From assembly GCA_021734905.1 (NCBI GenBank), contig JAIPIB010000007.1:1-42779 (forward strand): 42,779 bases of DNA, read 5' to 3'. This DNA is from Minisyncoccota bacterium. GTDB lineage: Bacteria; Patescibacteriota; Minisyncoccia; Phycocordibacterales; UBA918. The notes under the pieces are model-generated. The model was not told the origin of the DNA. It saw only the letters and a program-made list of their open reading frames with translations, and made no database searches. Made by a program: the position numbers and the translations under genes. Below are positions 3,781-15,329 of the stretch, piece after piece (position 1 is the stretch's first letter; each line of letters opens with the position of its first letter).

Positions 3781-4662
3781 TTACAAAATCTGAATAAAGA
3801 CAGGTCTAAGCTCTTTCCACTCCTCTTTCGTGAGGACACGCTCACTATATATACCTGAATCTGGATAATTCACTTCTGTGATTGTAATTGTGTCATCCGG
3901 GAAAACAGCCTCGACATATGCCAAGTGCCCAATATCACTATTAAGCATATACTCCATGACTGAGCCAACTTTTGACGTGACCCCAGTATGAACTCGTGGT
4001 GTTCCTTTTAAAATTTTATGCCACAATCCAGGAACACGAGGCTTAACATCATGAGGCCACTCAATAACAATTCCCTTTCTCCATAATCTATACAAAACAT
4101 ATTCCCCTGCCTGAAGAGCAAATTCTGAACGTCCAACTCCAAAAATATCAGCCAGAATCGCCCGGACACGTACAGAATTTGGATCGTCAACCATATTTTC
4201 TTGTCCAATGACAAACTCCGGATAAACAAAGACAGCTCGGTCAACAAGATCCTCACCGAGTACCCATCCCTCACAGGTGTTCCAGACGACTCGCAGAAAT
4301 CTACCTCGTGTTTCTAATACCATTACTATTTCTCCATAGGGAACGGCGCAAACCTGAGCATCAAATTCTACTGTTGGGTTTTGATACACAGGAACAGATA
4401 CTGTTCTCGCGTACATAATGGTATTTTTCCTCGATTCAACTCCAGTAAATTTCTTTGTTTCAATGATATCGTGGACCTTCTTAAAGGTATGTTGTGGTAC
4501 TTCAGTTACATCCTCTTCACCATGTCTTTCGGGAAATATATAAATATCGGTAGTACGAGTATTTCGAAAAAAATCACCAATACCTAAAATCACTTTTAAT
4601 GACACGTGGATAACAACATCGTATGCGGTATCAATTGCAGTGACTACAGATTCCCTATTCAT
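3781..4662 (-). CDS. SH3b-like + CHAP-like (NlpC/P60-type) cell-wall-hydrolase-fold protein
   Basis: C-terminal GHLAYVEAV ... ITEVNY resembles the CHAP His and Glu-Asn motifs; central YGEIVMVLETRGRFLRVVW..GWVLGEDL is SH3b-like. The expected catalytic Cys position reads QAGEYV. Confidence 0.6.
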   Translation of the reverse strand: MNRESVVTAIDTAYDVVIHVSLKVILGIGDFFRNTRTTDIYIFPERHGEEDVTEVPQHTFKKVHDIIETKKFTGVESRKNTIMYARTVSVPVYQNPTVEFDAQVCAVPYGEIVMVLETRGRFLRVVWNTCEGWVLGEDLVDRAVFVYPEFVIGQENMVDDPNSVRVRAILADIFGVGRSEFALQAGEYVLYRLWRKGIVIEWPHDVKPRVPGLWHKILKGTPRVHTGVTSKVGSVMEYMLNSDIGHLAYVEAVFPDDTITITEVNYPDSGIYSERVLTKEEWKELRPVFIQIL

Positions 4663-4754
4663 AGAGAATCATAATACCACTCACAAAAAATACTCTCTAT
4701 TGACGAATAGCCTGACTTTCATCGAAATATACATCTATAATCTAAAGGCTTTCT

Positions 4755-5423
4755 TTAACGTGATTTTGGCCAAATATCTTCTGCTTCTGGATACACTTTG
4801 GTTAATGGATGACTGGTGCATATATGCTTTCTAGCTGGGCATATGTCTCTGCCATAATGAACAAGTCTATGGTTAAACCCCCACCATTCTCCCTGTGGCA
4901 TAATTTCCATAAGATCTTTTTCAATACGTACAGGGTCTAGATAATCACTAAGATTAAATCGAATGGCAAAACGTCTCACATGGGTATCCACAGCAACCCC
5001 TTCATGGACACCAAAGGCGTTCGACAGGACTACATTTGCTGTTTTCCGAGCAACACCGGGGATTTCAAGAAGATCTTTCATATTATTCGGGACACTATCT
5101 CCATACTGTTTGATTATCATCTGTGCTGCTGCACGTATATTTTTTGCTTTTCTCCTATAAAATCCACACTGATAAACGCCTTGCTCCATTTCCTTCTGTG
5201 TCGCTGCTGCATAGTCGTATACTGTTGGATATTTTTTAAAAAGATTTTCGGTAACAACATTCACCCGCGCATCAGTACACTGAGCTGACAACTGCACAGC
5301 AACGAGAAGTTCCCAGTTATTACTATGTACAAGTGCTACAGCAGGGTTCGGATACAGTTTCTTAAGAATTCTATTCAATTTCTCAACTCGATCCATTCTT
5401 TCAAGTTTTTTCTGTGCATTCAT
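4755..5423 (-). CDS. nth: Endonuclease III (HhH-GPD), incomplete Fe-S ligand set
   Basis: LVAVQLSAQCTD, IPGVARKTANVVL and VDTHVRR motifs. Start moved to MNAQKK (5423) because hairpins occupy 5442-5507. C-terminus CPARKHICTSHPL keeps only 2 of the 4 cluster Cys. Confidence 0.85.
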   Translation of the reverse strand: MNAQKKLERMDRVEKLNRILKKLYPNPAVALVHSNNWELLVAVQLSAQCTDARVNVVTENLFKKYPTVYDYAAATQKEMEQGVYQCGFYRRKAKNIRAAAQMIIKQYGDSVPNNMKDLLEIPGVARKTANVVLSNAFGVHEGVAVDTHVRRFAIRFNLSDYLDPVRIEKDLMEIMPQGEWWGFNHRLVHYGRDICPARKHICTSHPLTKVYPEAEDIWPKSR

Positions 5424-5441
5424 GAGAGTAGTATACCAAAA

Positions 5442-5473
5442 CCAAAACAAGGCCATAAATGACCTTGTTTTGG
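5442..5473 (-). terminator. 11-bp stem hairpin between the DUF378 gene and nth
   Basis: CCAAAACAAGG (5442-5452) / CCTTGTTTTGG (5463-5473); minus strand followed by TTTTGGT. Confidence 0.45.
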
Positions 5474-5485
5474 ATCTTAAGGTAT

Positions 5486-5507
5486 AAAAAAACGGCAACG
5501 ATGCCGT
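5486..5507 (-). terminator. Intrinsic terminator of the DUF378 gene
   Basis: Minus strand ACGGCA-TCGT-TGCCGT followed by TTTTTTT, 3 nt after the stop at 5510. Confidence 0.65.
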
Positions 5508-5509
5508 TC

Positions 5510-5719
5510 CTATACTCTACACATACTACAATTTCCTTTATGTGTCAGAAGTTCATACAACGCTGCAAGTCCAACAAGGACATACACAATTGTTGAATAG
5601 GTACCCATTCCAAATACTTTTTCAACAACATTTACGTCAAATGCTCCAACAAGGAGCCAATTCAAACCACCTACAATAAGGAGTATGAATGACACCGAGT
5701 GTACCATTTTATTATTCAT
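5510..5719 (-). CDS. DUF378-family small membrane protein
   Basis: 69 aa, two TM helices, GGLNWLLVGAF.VNVVEKVFG motif typical of DUF378. Confidence 0.8.
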   Translation of the reverse strand: MNNKMVHSVSFILLIVGGLNWLLVGAFDVNVVEKVFGMGTYSTIVYVLVGLAALYELLTHKGNCSMCRV

Positions 5720-5813
5720 TTTTTACCATCGATAGAAGCTTATAAGCGACCACTTATATTGTACCATTCTGAGAAAACTGTAGGCTTGGCATGGGTATAA
5801 CTATTTTGTACGA

Positions 5814-6923
5814 CTACAGACGAAGAGTTCGGTAAAGAGATGTGCTTATTCCACCCAGTGACATCACGATTAATCCAAAAATAATAAAGCCGCCAACAAA
5901 CGGGACTAGTCCGAGTAGACAAAGAGAAGCAATGCCCGAAACTACAGTCATTAAAGTAATCTTTGATTTTTTTGTCAGGATCTTTTGTATATAGAGTCCA
6001 AGTAACACCCCCGCACACATAAGAGAAAGGATGAGTGCCGCAATGTAGAGACTCAGAATGAGTACTCCTATAAGTGTCCCGAGTACGCTCAGGAGAAGGA
6101 GTGCTCCAATAAACGGAATAATGAAAAATATCCCGAGTCCGGTAAGTCCTGAAACACCTGGAGCGCTCATGGTGAGATCCATGACTAGATAGATGTGTTT
6201 TCGGAAAACTAGATAACAAGTAAGTGCTGCAAAAAGAAGGACCGCTAACTGAAATGCAAACCCTTGAGCAAAACCAATCCCTTCCTGCATATCAACCCCA
6301 ACCCTCCGAACCTCTCCCACAATATTTGCATTAGGCGCTCTCACAATATCATTCCTACTTTTGTACGTTACCGAACCAAGGACTTCAGCACTACCTCCAA
6401 ATACCAGAAGAGTTCCTGTAGTGAGAGAGACATCACCACCAATTTTTGTATTAATACGAACTTTATCAGCAGTTCCGTGGATACTCCCCTCCACAGACCC
6501 TTCGACAATTAATTCGCCCCCCATAAATAAAATGTCCCCATCAACTCTGGCAGTTGAGAGTACCGTCAATGTTCCGCCAAGGACGACAAGATCTCCTTTG
6601 ATTTCCCTTCCAAGTGTAACTTCTCCGCCGACAACACGGAGATCATCTCCGATATCGCCATGAATCTGTGTGACACCACCAAGGACGACAAGATCTCCTT
6701 TTACAGGTGCGTTGATAGTCACAGTTCCTCCGGCAACATACACATCATTTTCTGATGGACCAGAAATCGTGACCGTGGGAGCAAACCCGTAAAAATCCCC
6801 CTCAAGGACCTGAGTTGAATCAACTGAAATATTTTCACCACTTCGTATTATTGGTTCTGCGTGAGTAAACTCCGGCACCAACACCACAGCAAAAATACTT
6901 ATGGCTAAGATTATTTTATTCAT
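5814..6923 (-). CDS. Exported/membrane protein with bactofilin-like GD-x-x-V-x-GG repeat domain and C-terminal multi-TM anchor
   Basis: Signal-peptide-like N-terminus (ILAISIFAVVLVPEFTHA). Repeated GDLVVLGG / GDDLRVVGG / GDILFMGG / GGDVSL units, then about 5 hydrophobic helices. Confidence 0.7.
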   Translation of the reverse strand: MNKIILAISIFAVVLVPEFTHAEPIIRSGENISVDSTQVLEGDFYGFAPTVTISGPSENDVYVAGGTVTINAPVKGDLVVLGGVTQIHGDIGDDLRVVGGEVTLGREIKGDLVVLGGTLTVLSTARVDGDILFMGGELIVEGSVEGSIHGTADKVRINTKIGGDVSLTTGTLLVFGGSAEVLGSVTYKSRNDIVRAPNANIVGEVRRVGVDMQEGIGFAQGFAFQLAVLLFAALTCYLVFRKHIYLVMDLTMSAPGVSGLTGLGIFFIIPFIGALLLLSVLGTLIGVLILSLYIAALILSLMCAGVLLGLYIQKILTKKSKITLMTVVSGIASLCLLGLVPFVGGFIIFGLIVMSLGGISTSLYRTLRL

Positions 6924-11982: not shown

Positions 11983-12498
11983 TCATGCTCGATTCCAAGG
12001 CATGTACCTCAAAATGTAAGTCATGCTGCAAATCCCAGTCACTCCAGCAAAAAGTAACCCAGTTCCAACGAATGCCGACAATGCGTACCACCAAGGATTC
12101 ATCCATGTGCCGAGTATTGACCCAGTAAGTATAAGTACGCCAGCAGTAATCATTACCTGTCTAATAATTGGAATAACGTTCTTCCCAACACGGACCACCT
12201 CAAAACCAGCACTTTCCCATGCATTGATCCCCCCTTCAATGTTAACAACGTTTATTCCAACGTCACTCAAAGACTGGCATGCACCGGCTGATCTACCTCC
12301 CGACTGGCAATGAACGTACACCGTCTTTATCATCTTAAGTCTATCTGTAGCATCCATAATTTTGTCGAGAGGAATATTTTTTGCCGCAGCAATATGCCGA
12401 GATTTAAACTCAAAGGGCTCTCGCACATCGATAAGTATTTCATCAAAATCACCATCGGAGAGTCGTTCTTTTAATTCTTGCGCGGTTATTGTTTGCAT
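11983..12498 (-). CDS. Rhodanese domain fused to two-TM DUF2892 (YgaP-like sulfurtransferase)
   Basis: Active-site loop HCQSGGRS; C-terminal hydrophobic hairpin with GxCxM-like ending (GICSMTYIL). Confidence 0.8.
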   Translation of the reverse strand: MQTITAQELKERLSDGDFDEILIDVREPFEFKSRHIAAAKNIPLDKIMDATDRLKMIKTVYVHCQSGGRSAGACQSLSDVGINVVNIEGGINAWESAGFEVVRVGKNVIPIIRQVMITAGVLILTGSILGTWMNPWWYALSAFVGTGLLFAGVTGICSMTYILRYMPWNRA

Positions 12499-12507
12499 AT
12501 AATTTTA

Positions 12508-12532
12508 GGGAACTATATACAAAGTTACCCTA
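12508..12532. repeat. Left terminal inverted repeat of the IS1595-like element
   Basis: Exact reverse complement of 14906-14930; contains the stop codon of the nuclease ORF. Confidence 0.9.
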
Positions 12533-13091
12533 AAAATCGTTTGTTCACGAGTGCTTGAAACTCGGACATATTGTAAACACCAATTAAAGCCCTGTTAGGG
12601 TTCACTTGGTTTTTAAGCCACTCCATAGCAGTACGTTTGTAACCGCCACCGTCAAGCAAGATAATGGTTGGTAACCCGATTTTGATGATATTGAAAAGCG
12701 TAAATGGGTATTTCTCGTCTACACTACCGTTACTCTGTTGCCACTTACACTCAATGATGAGGTCGCTCGGAAACTTCTCTTTGTTTATGATGAGAAAATC
12801 GCACTTTCTGGGGCTTTCGTAGATACTCGTACCACAAGGCACTTGCTTGGCGTACTGTTTACCGCCCACGTTTGCTCGGTTATCAAAAAGTTGCTTTCGG
12901 TTGCCTGTAAACTCTAGGTAGCCATTATCTAACAAAATACGCTCAACAAAACGCTCTAGGGTATTGCCTGTTACGTTTGCTTGCTGTCCACCAATGATGG
13001 GACTATTTATAGTTTCTGATGATAAGCTCGTTTTCTTTTCCACGTTGATGTGACTTACACGATACGAACCGTGAAGCCGATACCGTTTCAA
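12525..13091 (-). CDS. Small PD-(D/E)XK-type nuclease, putative restriction endonuclease partner of the Dam-like MTase
   Basis: CDFLI-x12-IIECKWQ matches a D...(D/E)xK core; immediately downstream of the MTase. The start is uncertain because the ORF-track start overlaps the MTase by 89 nt. Confidence 0.55.
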   Translation of the reverse strand: MKRYRLHGSYRVSHINVEKKTSLSSETINSPIIGGQQANVTGNTLERFVERILLDNGYLEFTGNRKQLFDNRANVGGKQYAKQVPCGTSIYESPRKCDFLIINKEKFPSDLIIECKWQQSNGSVDEKYPFTLFNIIKIGLPTIILLDGGGYKRTAMEWLKNQVNPNRALIGVYNMSEFQALVNKRFLG

Positions 13092-13887
13092 TAGTATAGC
13101 CCTTATATAGCTCTCTTACAAACGGAGTATCGCTATTTGAGAGCATAAAGAAACCACCCTTTTTGTGTATTTTATGGCAAAACTCTGCTAGGGCTATGTG
13201 TTCAGCATCACCAAAACCGTCACCGCTATAACCACTGTAAGTTTCGTGATATGGAGGATCAAGATAATAGAAGTCGTCTTTGTATATTTCCGCTTGTTTG
13301 AAGCTGTGTTGTGTGACGTTTGCGGATTTGAGTAGAGTAGAACACGCTCGTAGATTGTCAGCGTCTAGGATGGCAGGGTTCTTGTAGTCACCCATAGGGA
13401 CGTTATAACCACCGCTTTTGTTCACTCGGTACAACCCATTGAAACACGTCTTGTTTATGTATATGAAAACCGAAGCTAGTTTGGTAGGGTCTTTTTCTTT
13501 TGCTAGTCGCTCACGTTGTCGCCCGTAGTATTCTTTACTGTGGTTTCGTTCGTGTCCTTTGAGGAGGGTAATAAGTCGCTCTACATCATTTCGTACTGCT
13601 TGGTAGGTAATGACAAGGTGAAAGTTGATGTCAGACAGATATGCTTCTTTTGGTTGCAGGGCAAAATATAATGCTCCACCACCCATAAATGGTTCGTGGT
13701 ATGCGTCATAACTGTCGGGCATACGCTTGATAAGTTCGGGCAATATAGAACGCTTGCCACCCACCCATTTTACAAACGGACGGGCAGTAGGCACGATGAT
13801 GTCTGGTCGGTTTTCTGTACCGATTGCAGTCAATACTTCGTCAAATGAAGCGTCTATGGGTTCGTGATATTTTTTGTCTCGTCCCAT
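13003..13887 (-). CDS. Dam-family (D12 class, alpha group) N6-adenine DNA methyltransferase
   Basis: VKWVGGKRSILPEL, FMGGGALYF (motif I) upstream of DPPY (motif IV). Confidence 0.9.
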   Translation of the reverse strand: MGRDKKYHEPIDASFDEVLTAIGTENRPDIIVPTARPFVKWVGGKRSILPELIKRMPDSYDAYHEPFMGGGALYFALQPKEAYLSDINFHLVITYQAVRNDVERLITLLKGHERNHSKEYYGRQRERLAKEKDPTKLASVFIYINKTCFNGLYRVNKSGGYNVPMGDYKNPAILDADNLRACSTLLKSANVTQHSFKQAEIYKDDFYYLDPPYHETYSGYSGDGFGDAEHIALAEFCHKIHKKGGFFMLSNSDTPFVRELYKGYTIETVSASRFVSCKSHQRGKENELIIRNYK

Positions 13888-13888
13888 A

Positions 13889-14803
13889 TTAGGCGGTAAG
13901 TTTATTGTACGGAAGTTGTGAGCTTTCCGATACTCTGATAACTGCGTCCGTGAACATATCTACCAATGAAGCAGTACGGCTGTTGTGACGGAACACAAAC
14001 TCGTTGACGTACTTTTGCAGGTGTTTCTTGCTCATTGTGTGGTATGTGCCGTAGTATCCACGCTTGAACGTAGCCCAGAAACTTTCCATTGTATTTGAGT
14101 GTGCTTCACCCTTTACATATTGTCCCTTTCCGTGAGATACGGACTGGTGAGGGTAGAGTGAACCTATTTTTGAGTATGAAAGAAACTCGTCAGTAAAAAG
14201 CTCTGAACCGATTTTGACGTGTTCAACAATCATACTTTCAAGCGTTCGCATTTTCACGTCTTGTACCACACTCGCTTTTACCTTACCGCCACGCTGTATC
14301 AAGCCAACAACAGGGGTCTTGGTGAGCGTATTTCGCCCCTGTGTGCCTTTAGTACGCTTGTGGGCGTGCTTGTTCTTCTCCTTTCCACCGATGTAGGTTT
14401 CGTCTACTTCTACCTTACCAAAAAGCTGTCCACCATTTTGCTTCATAGTCGCTCGAATACGATGATCCATAAACCACGCTGTCTTTTGAGTAACACCTAT
14501 TTGCTTTGCAAGGTTGATAGAAGAAACACCCTTTTTGTTGGTAGTGAGTAGGTAAATAGCCACGAACCACTTTTGTAGAGGGATTTTGCTTTCACCGAAT
14601 ACTGTACCTGTCTTGATAGTGAAGTCCTTTTTACAAGACGCACAACGGTATCGCTTGCCGTCAGCAAAGCGGTTTATCTTACTGTGGTTACAGTGAGGGC
14701 AATAGTCACCGTCTTTGAAACGGATTTGCTCAAAGTATTTTTTGCACGTTTCTTCGTCCTTGTAGTGGGCGAGGAAGTCAATCAATGTTTTATACTCTTT
14801 CAT
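13889..14803 (-). CDS. IS1595-family transposase (N-terminal zinc ribbon + ISXO2-like DDE domain)
   Basis: CPHC...CASC zinc ribbon, VEVDETYIGG, FTDEF, HSNTMESFWATFKRG motifs. Confidence 0.85.
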   Translation of the reverse strand: MKEYKTLIDFLAHYKDEETCKKYFEQIRFKDGDYCPHCNHSKINRFADGKRYRCASCKKDFTIKTGTVFGESKIPLQKWFVAIYLLTTNKKGVSSINLAKQIGVTQKTAWFMDHRIRATMKQNGGQLFGKVEVDETYIGGKEKNKHAHKRTKGTQGRNTLTKTPVVGLIQRGGKVKASVVQDVKMRTLESMIVEHVKIGSELFTDEFLSYSKIGSLYPHQSVSHGKGQYVKGEAHSNTMESFWATFKRGYYGTYHTMSKKHLQKYVNEFVFRHNSRTASLVDMFTDAVIRVSESSQLPYNKLTA

Positions 14804-14905
14804 TACTACCTATCTTATACGATCAGATTAGGGTTGTCAACTCCTTTTATCCACACACCATAAAACCCTGCTATGTCAAACACGGCGGGGCTTCTGTTAT
14901 ACTGC

Positions 14906-14930
14906 TAGGGTAACTTTGTATATAGTTCCC
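14906..14930. repeat. Right terminal inverted repeat of the IS1595-like element
   Basis: Exact reverse complement of 12508-12532. Confidence 0.9.
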
Positions 14931-14954
14931 TAATTTTATTATTGAAAAAAATAA

Positions 14955-15329
14955 TTATTCATCAGCCTGTATTGTAGTACTTGATACTGCTGTCACCTCT
15001 TCGGACTTATCAAAGACAGAGGTCGTAGACACGCTCTCTTCTTGGATAGATACGGGGTTCTCATCTTTCTGAATTATAACAGTATCTTTTGCAGCGCGTA
15101 TAACGGCATTTCTAACTTTCTCTGTAAAAATCTCTCGTTCTACCTTCTTATTGTTCTGATCAAAAGAAATAACAACATACTCATCTTGTGGTATAGCAAA
15201 AAGTATTTCCTTTGTATACGTCTGTTGTTCGCTTTCGACTGAATTGGAAGACATTAATCCAACACACAAAATAAGACCAAGACAACAGAAGATTGCAATG
15301 AGAAGATATTTCGTACTTACCATGAACAC
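14955..15329 (-). CDS. Hypothetical membrane-anchored protein with acidic C-terminus
   Basis: 124 aa, N-terminal TM helix, no recognisable domain. Confidence 0.55.
   Translation of the reverse strand: MFMVSTKYLLIAIFCCLGLILCVGLMSSNSVESEQQTYTKEILFAIPQDEYVVISFDQNNKKVEREIFTEKVRNAVIRAAKDTVIIQKDENPVSIQEESVSTTSVFDKSEEVTAVSSTTIQADE

Follow-up and report, generated by a model that had tools for sequence, protein, structure and literature searches.

An IS1595-family transporter insertion sequence from a Minisyncoccota genome with a methylase–nuclease cargo, likely a GATC-type II restriction–modification pair

Insertion sequences (IS) that carry passenger genes within their own ends have been set apart as transporter IS (tIS), a concept that goes back to work on the IS1595 family (Siguier, Gagnevin & Chandler, 2009, as cited in PMC3129680 and PMC11891212), and IS1595 elements with passengers form an accepted class (PMC5704250, PMC11891212). 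Described examples are tISCpe8 of Clostridium perfringens, which carries lnuP, and MTnSag1 (tISSag10) of Streptococcus agalactiae, which carries lnuC (Lyras, 2009, and Achard & Leclercq, 2007, reviewed in PMC5704250); both are bounded by 25-bp repeats, make 8-bp duplications in A+T-rich targets and pass through a circular intermediate (PMC5704250). Transposon-like restriction–modification (R-M) units with terminal inverted repeats and an 8-bp target duplication have also been reported (Furuta, Abe & Kobayashi, 2010; PMC2853133), among them a Neisseria unit with 26-bp repeats, a truncated type IIG gene and a COG3677 transposase-like gene that was judged to be probably inactivated (PMC2853133). 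Here we describe an element from a Minisyncoccota bacterium that brings these two themes together. It lies in a stretch of 42,779 nucleotides (contig JAIPIB010000007.1 of assembly GCA_021734905.1, positions 1 to 42,779), which we call the window. We hold it to be quite likely that the region is an intact, single-copy IS1595-family tIS with a methylase–nuclease cargo that is itself likely a GATC type II R-M pair. The vehicle is ordinary; what is new is an IS1595 tIS with a complete, probably GATC-specific R-M pair.

The element spans positions 12508 to 14930 on the minus strand (2,423 bp), as delimited by its inverted repeats and by comparison with 32 related elements. The 25-nt sequence GGGAACTATATACAAAGTTACCCTA is found at 12508–12532, on the nuclease side (the right end in element orientation), and its exact reverse complement at 14906–14930, on the transposase side (the left end, which thus reads GGGAACTATATACAAAGTTACCCTA on the minus strand). 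With up to three mismatches allowed, the window contains two copies of this sequence as against 0.00 expected from 100 shuffles. Immediately outside both inverted repeats the 8-bp target-site duplication TAATTTTA stands as a direct repeat, one copy at 12500–12507 beside a rhodanese-like gene and the second at 14931–14938. Between the ends lie three open reading frames (ORFs), all on the minus strand, at 13889–14803, 13003–13887 and 12525–13091; the first two are separated by a single nucleotide, and the stop codon of the third (12525–12527) falls within the right-end repeat. An earlier note on this DNA, written from the letters alone, had described the perfect 25-bp repeats, the 8-bp direct duplication, the three tightly packed co-oriented ORFs and the stop codon within a repeat, and our analysis bears out each of these points.

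The same note regarded the boundary between repeat and duplication as ambiguous by up to 3 bp. The ambiguity does arise, because TAATTTTA is nearly palindromic, and for the same reason a repeat finder stretches the inverted-repeat arms to 34 nt at 94%. The related elements resolve it: the 32 for which both ends were found all have GGG or GGT as their first bases and lie in flanks that bear no relation to one another, so the element comprises positions 12508–14930 and the duplication is 8 bp long. The source assembly (14 contigs, 851,602 bases, estimated completeness 97%) holds one copy of the element, and its sole IS1595 transposase and sole D12 methylase are both inside it.

The first gene (13889–14803, minus strand) encodes an IS1595-family DDE transposase of 304 aa with an N-terminal CxxC...CxxC zinc ribbon. 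It matches the Pfam profiles DDE_Tnp_IS1595 (PF12762; E = 7.6e-45, 153 bits, cut-off 27) and Zn_ribbon_IS1595 (PF12760; E = 3.1e-11, 43.5 bits, cut-off 25.4) as well as the NCBIfam model transpos_IS1595 (NF033547; 204 bits, cut-off 75), which substantiates the earlier reading of this ORF as an IS1595-type transposase with zinc ribbon and DDE domain. In 32 related transposases D134, D205, E240 and K247 are invariant or nearly so, and the four cysteines of the zinc ribbon are conserved. K247 stands at E+7, an E-x3-R motif is formed by E268 and R272, and the element ends read GGGAACTAT. The ISNwi1 subgroup of the ISfinder table is presumably defined by DDEK with E-x3-R and by ends of the form GGnnAyTAT, and the element may belong to it. 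Since the methylase and nuclease genes lie within the IS ends, co-diverge with the transposase and recur with it at unrelated sites, each time with a separate duplication, the element is a tIS.

Relatives of the element make the case that the three genes belong together. One genome per prokaryotic species was scanned, yielding 174 loci with nuclease relatives, of which the best 80 were analysed; counts of related loci in the following refer to these 80 genome loci together with metagenome and IMG/VR loci. The order transposase–methylase–nuclease recurs in 39 other loci, and both ends were found in 32. Perfect 8-bp duplications flank 22 related elements at unrelated sites, those of two more have one mismatch, and the duplicated targets of the related elements are 89% A+T. 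One 2,446-bp contig (L004) is a complete element with 84.6% nucleotide identity, identical 25-bp repeats and the closest protein relative of the nuclease (94%), and two further relatives at ~70% nucleotide identity have the same genes and ends with 8-bp duplications of their own (GAAGATAA and GATAAATA). The nearest copy elsewhere in the one-genome-per-species scan is in a Candidatus Saccharibacteria bin, with 95–97% protein identity. Judged by bin assignments of short mobile contigs, which call for caution, hosts within the Patescibacteria include Saccharimonadota, Paceibacterota and others, and hosts outside them include Planctomycetota, Verrucomicrobiota, Acidobacteriota, Thermodesulfobacteriota, Deinococcota, Chloroflexota, Cyanobacteriota and several Pseudomonadota. 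These loci show that the three genes transpose as one unit in many lineages. The possibility raised in the note, that copies of the IS without cargo would reveal the repeats as parts of two independent elements, finds no counterpart among the relatives: even where transposase identity is as low as 38%, all three genes are enclosed by the same ends, and each element has an 8-bp duplication of its own.

Pairwise identities of transposase and cargo are closely correlated (Mantel r 0.91, with 0 of 2,000 permutations as high) over transposase identities of 38–99%. Between the window copy and its two nearest relatives (L004 and L010), the ratio of non-synonymous to synonymous divergence (dN/dS) is 0.02–0.04 in each gene, and 0.03–0.04 in the nuclease, at a synonymous divergence (dS) of 0.6–1.2. 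All three genes are under strong purifying selection, and co-divergence together with low dN/dS indicates that the unit is old and has been selected as a whole. The 25-bp repeats are identical in the window copy, L004 and L010 despite this large synonymous divergence, so their perfection reflects constraint and not recency; the note's argument from perfect repeats and a clean duplication to a recent insertion was rejected on this ground.

Measured against tISCpe8 and MTnSag1, the element shares the tIS plan of passenger genes inside its own IS ends, one zinc-ribbon DDE transposase of IS1595 type, 25-bp repeats, an 8-bp duplication and A+T-rich targets; the length of the duplication, which the note had thought fitting for the family, equals the values reported for these two. 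It differs in size (2.4 kb versus 1.7–2.0 kb) and in cargo, which is a two-gene methylase–nuclease module in place of a single lincosamide-resistance gene. Whereas tISCpe8 and MTnSag1 come from Firmicutes pathogens, the lineage of the window element is found mainly in uncultured bacteria, many of them Patescibacteria, and on phage-like contigs. A circular intermediate and mobilisation by Tn916 have been demonstrated for tISCpe8 and MTnSag1. The passengers named in the citing papers examined are transcription regulators, single methyltransferases (in another family) and resistance genes, with no complete R-M pair among them. The units described in PMC2853133 are isolated cases whose mover was not identified by the authors, in contrast to the present lineage with its intact transposase and at least 22 independent insertions with duplications. 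A literature search, with ISfinder and REBASE outside its scope, found no description of the lineage or of the PDDEXK_11 family to which the nuclease belongs. The note had considered an R-M pair within a simple IS unusual; the word holds in a relative sense, as passenger-carrying IS1595 elements were already established and the lineage is widespread.

The second gene (13003–13887, minus strand) begins 1 nt past the transposase stop and encodes a Dam/DpnM-type N6-adenine DNA methyltransferase of 294 aa. With 283 bits against TIGR00571 (cut-off 115; E = 2.5e-84), an E-value of 1.6e-57 against PF02086, and both the FxGxG motif for S-adenosylmethionine (AdoMet) and the DPPY catalytic motif that characterise the Dam family, the Dam-class assignment made in the note is secure. 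All 74 partner methylases share D210, P211 and P212. The closest solved structure is DpnM of the DpnII system (2DPM; E = 1.1e-57), and E. coli Dam matches with E = 1.4e-27. Six residues of E. coli Dam (K9, Y119, N120, L122, R124 and P134), which contact GATC in the Dam–DNA structure 2G1P, align to K40, F149, N150, L152, R154 and P164 of the methylase. These positions are invariant in the 74 partner methylases, position 149 being Y or F and position 152 showing one L-to-M exception. The alignment points to GATC as the probable target of the methylase.

The third gene encodes a compact PD-(D/E)XK nuclease, a putative DpnII-related restriction endonuclease of 172 aa (12525–13043, minus strand). 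Its ORF is open from TTG 13091, which had led the note to a protein of ~188 aa; homologues are 164–172 aa long and their alignment begins at GTG 13043, and we have corrected the start to this codon, from which the gene overlaps that of the methylase by 41 nt. Public collections record the 172-aa form. The protein matches Pfam PF20472 (PDDEXK_11) with E-values of about 1e-37 to 7e-37, among them 5.3e-37, and its AlphaFold model (mean confidence score, pLDDT, of 81) has an alpha-beta-beta-beta-alpha-beta core in which D82 is placed on the second strand (78–87) and E98 and K100 on the third (91–100). These three catalytic candidates are invariant in 26 family sequences. All top matches of the model in Foldseek are PD-(D/E)XK nucleases of restriction type, and the small subunit of R.BspD6I is first among them. 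Profile, modelled core and fold matches agree with the D...ExK nuclease-like core recognised in the note, and by its modelled core the protein is a member of the PD-(D/E)XK superfamily.

The relation of this nuclease to DpnII is a distant one. The Pfam profile DpnII (PF04556) is matched by 23 of the 26 family members with 23–27 bits against a cut-off of 23, some slightly above the gathering score, and the matches cover positions of about 141–271 of 278; one family member carries the NCBI name “DpnII family type II restriction endonuclease”. The window nuclease itself does not match this profile at E ≤ 1. From these alignments we regard the nuclease as a distant, truncated DpnII relative rather than a clear member of the DpnII family. 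The DpnII system of Streptococcus pneumoniae, which consists of DpnM, DpnA and R.DpnII and acts at GATC, resembles the module in that DpnM is nearest to the methylase, in the order of methylase then nuclease, and in the DpnII-profile matches. R.DpnII has about 288 aa as compared with 172 aa of the window nuclease, whose family covers only the C-terminal half of the profile, with borderline scores. The DpnII system furthermore includes a second methylase of DpnA type, for which the window element has no equivalent, and is a chromosomal cassette whereas the module of the window resides inside an IS.

Methylase and nuclease keep company irrespective of the transposase. A Dam-class methylase adjoins the nuclease in 87 of 88 loci, whether or not a transposase is present, and in 41 of these loci the pair stands without a transposase detected alongside; the partner of the nuclease is accordingly the methylase and not the transposase. 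Tandem and convergent arrangements of the pair occur, the convergent one in cyanobacteria. In a tree of methylase and nuclease, the window element belongs to a strongly supported clade of 31 loci, 24 of which have the transposase. Three transposase-less pairs of this clade (L027, L021 and L032) are deletion derivatives, as the right-end repeat is still present: L021 and L032 have retained this repeat alone, whereas L027 (3843–5521) has its left and right repeats and its promoter, and part of the transposase zinc ribbon survives ahead of an intact methylase–nuclease pair; it would thus represent a cassette-like, non-autonomous form. Given the match to the C-terminal part of DpnII, the GATC-contact residues shared with Dam and the constant pairing, the cargo is most likely a compact GATC type II R-M system, and active restriction and modification by the pair is what we infer from its sequence.

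Several observations weigh against this assignment. The best fold match of the nuclease is weak (E = 2.7e-3, TM-score 0.39), neither the protein alone nor its profile finds a significant sequence match among solved structures, and the restriction-enzyme models of PADLOC do not recognise it. The N-terminal ~140 residues of DpnII are absent from the nuclease, and site recognition is not transferable from DpnII. In the host genome GATC has an observed-to-expected ratio (O/E) of 0.81, the lowest of the sixteen 4-base palindromes and yet a mild value; inside the elements it is 0.61, which ranks fifth among generally depleted 4-base palindromes. The single copy in the genome counts against claiming current mobility for the window copy.

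GATC avoidance was tried as a test of specificity and set aside as non-discriminating, given the mild value in the host and the depletion of all palindromes in the elements. That depletion is an observation of its own: within 22 related elements all sixteen 4-base palindromes are under-represented, with O/E of 0.45–0.82 and far more so than in the flanks, which suggests that a promiscuous mobile element is selected to avoid restriction sites of many kinds.

Three other explanations were weighed. The pair might follow another logic than that of a classical type IIP R-M system, with a nuclease that nicks DNA or senses hemimethylation in the way of MutH or Sau3AI, or one that depends on methylation. 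MutH, Sau3AI, MboI and DpnII all have PD-(D/E)XK cores that act at GATC, only the C-terminal half of the DpnII profile is covered by the family, and the fold matches include MspJI and the small subunit of R.BspD6I, which is a subunit of a nicking enzyme. A methyl-dependent nuclease whose gene overlaps that of a methylase for the same site would, however, be self-destructive, the unit has no partner of MutS/MutL type, and the overlap between methylase end and nuclease start is typical of type II R-M operons; we therefore consider this explanation improbable.

Slightly less probable still is that the nuclease serves as a transposition helper, a TnsA-like second-strand nuclease working with the DDE transposase, and that the methylase only marks or regulates the element. 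TnsA of Tn7 is indeed a nuclease of restriction-enzyme fold that partners a DDE transposase, all three genes of the element co-diverge, and the nuclease is far smaller than characterised GATC enzymes. Against this stand the 41 methylase–nuclease loci, including the convergent cyanobacterial ones, that have no transposase detected next to them, and the need of MTnSag1, tISCpe8 and IS1595 elements generally for the transposase alone (PMC5704250). As transposase-free methylase–nuclease pairs exist, a TnsA-like role of the nuclease was rejected. That the window copy is a dead relic or a chance juxtaposition, with repeats from separate elements or non-functional genes, is very improbable, for although the genome has one copy only, the three reading frames are intact with their catalytic residues present, ends and duplication are perfect, the same architecture lies between the same ends at 32 other loci, and purifying selection among the nearest relatives is strong.

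The transposase moves everything between the two repeats, probably via a circular copy by analogy with MTnSag1 and tISCpe8. If the cargo is a GATC-type II R-M pair, the methylase would shield the carrier genome, and the nuclease, whose start codon falls within the gene of the methylase and whose translation is probably coupled to that gene, would cleave DNA with unmethylated GATC. The pair would thereby defend the carrier against incoming DNA and punish loss of the element, in the manner of an addiction module.

Expression of the three genes probably depends on one promoter by the left end. The best promoter-like site of the region (10/12), a putative sigma-70-like promoter of the three-gene operon just inside this end (14812–14840, minus strand), consists of TTGACA, a 17-nt spacer and TAAGAT. 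The spacer contains a GATC at 14821–14824, shortly before the −10 hexamer. The 24 elements of the window's clade that have the transposase all share the promoter pattern TTGACAACCC-N6-TGATC-N3-TAnnnT; GATC keeps one fixed place in their spacers, while nine of the other spacer positions are free to vary. In four elements that are further removed, a GATC occurs at a different place of the promoter region, and one other clade, in which the −35 hexamer is inside the terminal repeat, has none in the promoter. The promoter GATC is also lost in the transposase-deleted derivative L027.

Host Dam methylation of a promoter GATC limits transposase synthesis in IS10, IS50 and IS903, and in IS10 and IS50 the Dam sensitivity of transposase synthesis ties transposition to replication. 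The window element resembles IS10/Tn10, IS50/Tn5 and IS903 in having a GATC within the transposase promoter, here in the spacer just upstream of the −10 hexamer; whereas those elements use the Dam of the host, it would supply its own methylase. We put forward, tentatively and as the less probable side of the question, that it is a self-contained epigenetic transposon whose own methylase methylates the invariant promoter GATC and so controls all three genes. In an unmethylated naive genome or on injected phage DNA the promoter would then be fully active, allowing a burst of transposition and modification ahead of restriction; methylation of the site would lower expression to a maintenance level; and the brief hemimethylation after replication would reopen the promoter, as in IS10. 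Conservation of the promoter GATC could alternatively reflect a protein-binding site.

Related elements were also seen in phage-like genomes. One (L005, ENA k141_3812, 4107–6532) has RecT/YqaJ genes, a portal gene and a large terminase as its neighbours, another (L009, Logan SRR8146440_1881, 4096–6523) is flanked by genes for an endolysin and a DNA polymerase exonuclease, and three IMG/VR contigs (L100, L103 and L104) contain the full transposase–methylase–nuclease unit, with a fourth (L101) having the same unit with a truncated transposase. In annotated plasmid and phage collections, one distant pair on an Alicyclobacillus plasmid was found and no phage record. Phages may be the vehicle of spread across phyla. 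In a Bdellovibrionales bin (L015), a Moraniibacteriota bin (L016) and a genome of the window's class (G156, locus L099), methylase and nuclease are identical or nearly so; such near-identical cargo across phyla means either very recent transfer or a mis-binned mobile contig.

Some relatives deviate in length or in their flanks. Longer variants of 2.7–3.2 kb with an extra segment were found at eight loci (L017, L018, L020, L029 and L033, and also L011, L014 and L025). In the first five, a stretch of ~650 nt separates the left repeat from the transposase promoter and contains, in reverse orientation, a small Cys-rich ORF of 98–133 aa. This ORF, in which the motif C-x-HG...H(E/D)(S/N)Q(A/G)G...(H/R)KC..C recurs, may encode a controller or be another passenger. 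The element L054 (3078–5526) has no direct duplication, and its flanks are near reverse complements of each other (TAAAAATA and TATTTTTA), as expected after inversion between two inverted copies or after intramolecular transposition. The window element and L025, a 2,960-bp relative from another Saccharibacteria bin, have the same duplication TAAAATTA (in element orientation) at non-homologous sites, and other targets resemble it (TTAAATTA, TTAATTTT and TAAAATTG), which hints at a preferred A+T-rich, near-palindromic target.

In its host the element sits within a string of co-oriented genes (an ATP-grasp gene, a gene for 124 aa, a rhodanese-like gene and an exonuclease-like gene) that share its orientation. 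The 124-aa gene upstream of the insertion (14955–15329, minus strand) ends with its stop codon 16 nt from the duplication, and downstream the gene for a rhodanese-like membrane protein (11983–12498, minus strand) starts with an ATG at 12496–12498, 1 nt from the other copy. Removal of the element and one copy of the duplication leaves a spacer of 25 nt and gives GCATATAATTTTATTATTG as the predicted empty-site sequence. A DNA-level search for empty sites in 40 relatives gave no result because the species are too divergent, and protein-level synteny was used instead. By this measure, in a genome of the same genus (G002) the homologous 124-aa and rhodanese genes lie 18 nt apart and uninterrupted, and in one of the same family (G021) the rhodanese gene directly follows its upstream neighbour with the element absent. 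The insertion is therefore specific to the lineage of the window, and the nuclease is present in only two of 401 sampled genomes of the class. No terminator-like sites were found on the minus strand within the element or at its end, and the rhodanese-like gene and those downstream of it are for this reason probably transcribed by read-through from the element promoter.

R-M systems have long been argued to be selfish mobile elements, and clear cases of complete systems moved by a transposase are few and isolated (PMC2853133). The lineage described here is a clean and repeated case, with a minimal IS, an intact transposase, a complete pair and at least 22 insertions in many phyla and in phage-like genomes, and it also points to a possible methylation-gated promoter. 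Its nuclease, an uncharacterised DpnII relative of half the size, escapes current defence-system models and might find use as a small enzyme. For the Minisyncoccota host, the element shows how defence or addiction modules arrive in a genome of ~0.85 Mb and that their insertion can be tolerated within an operon.

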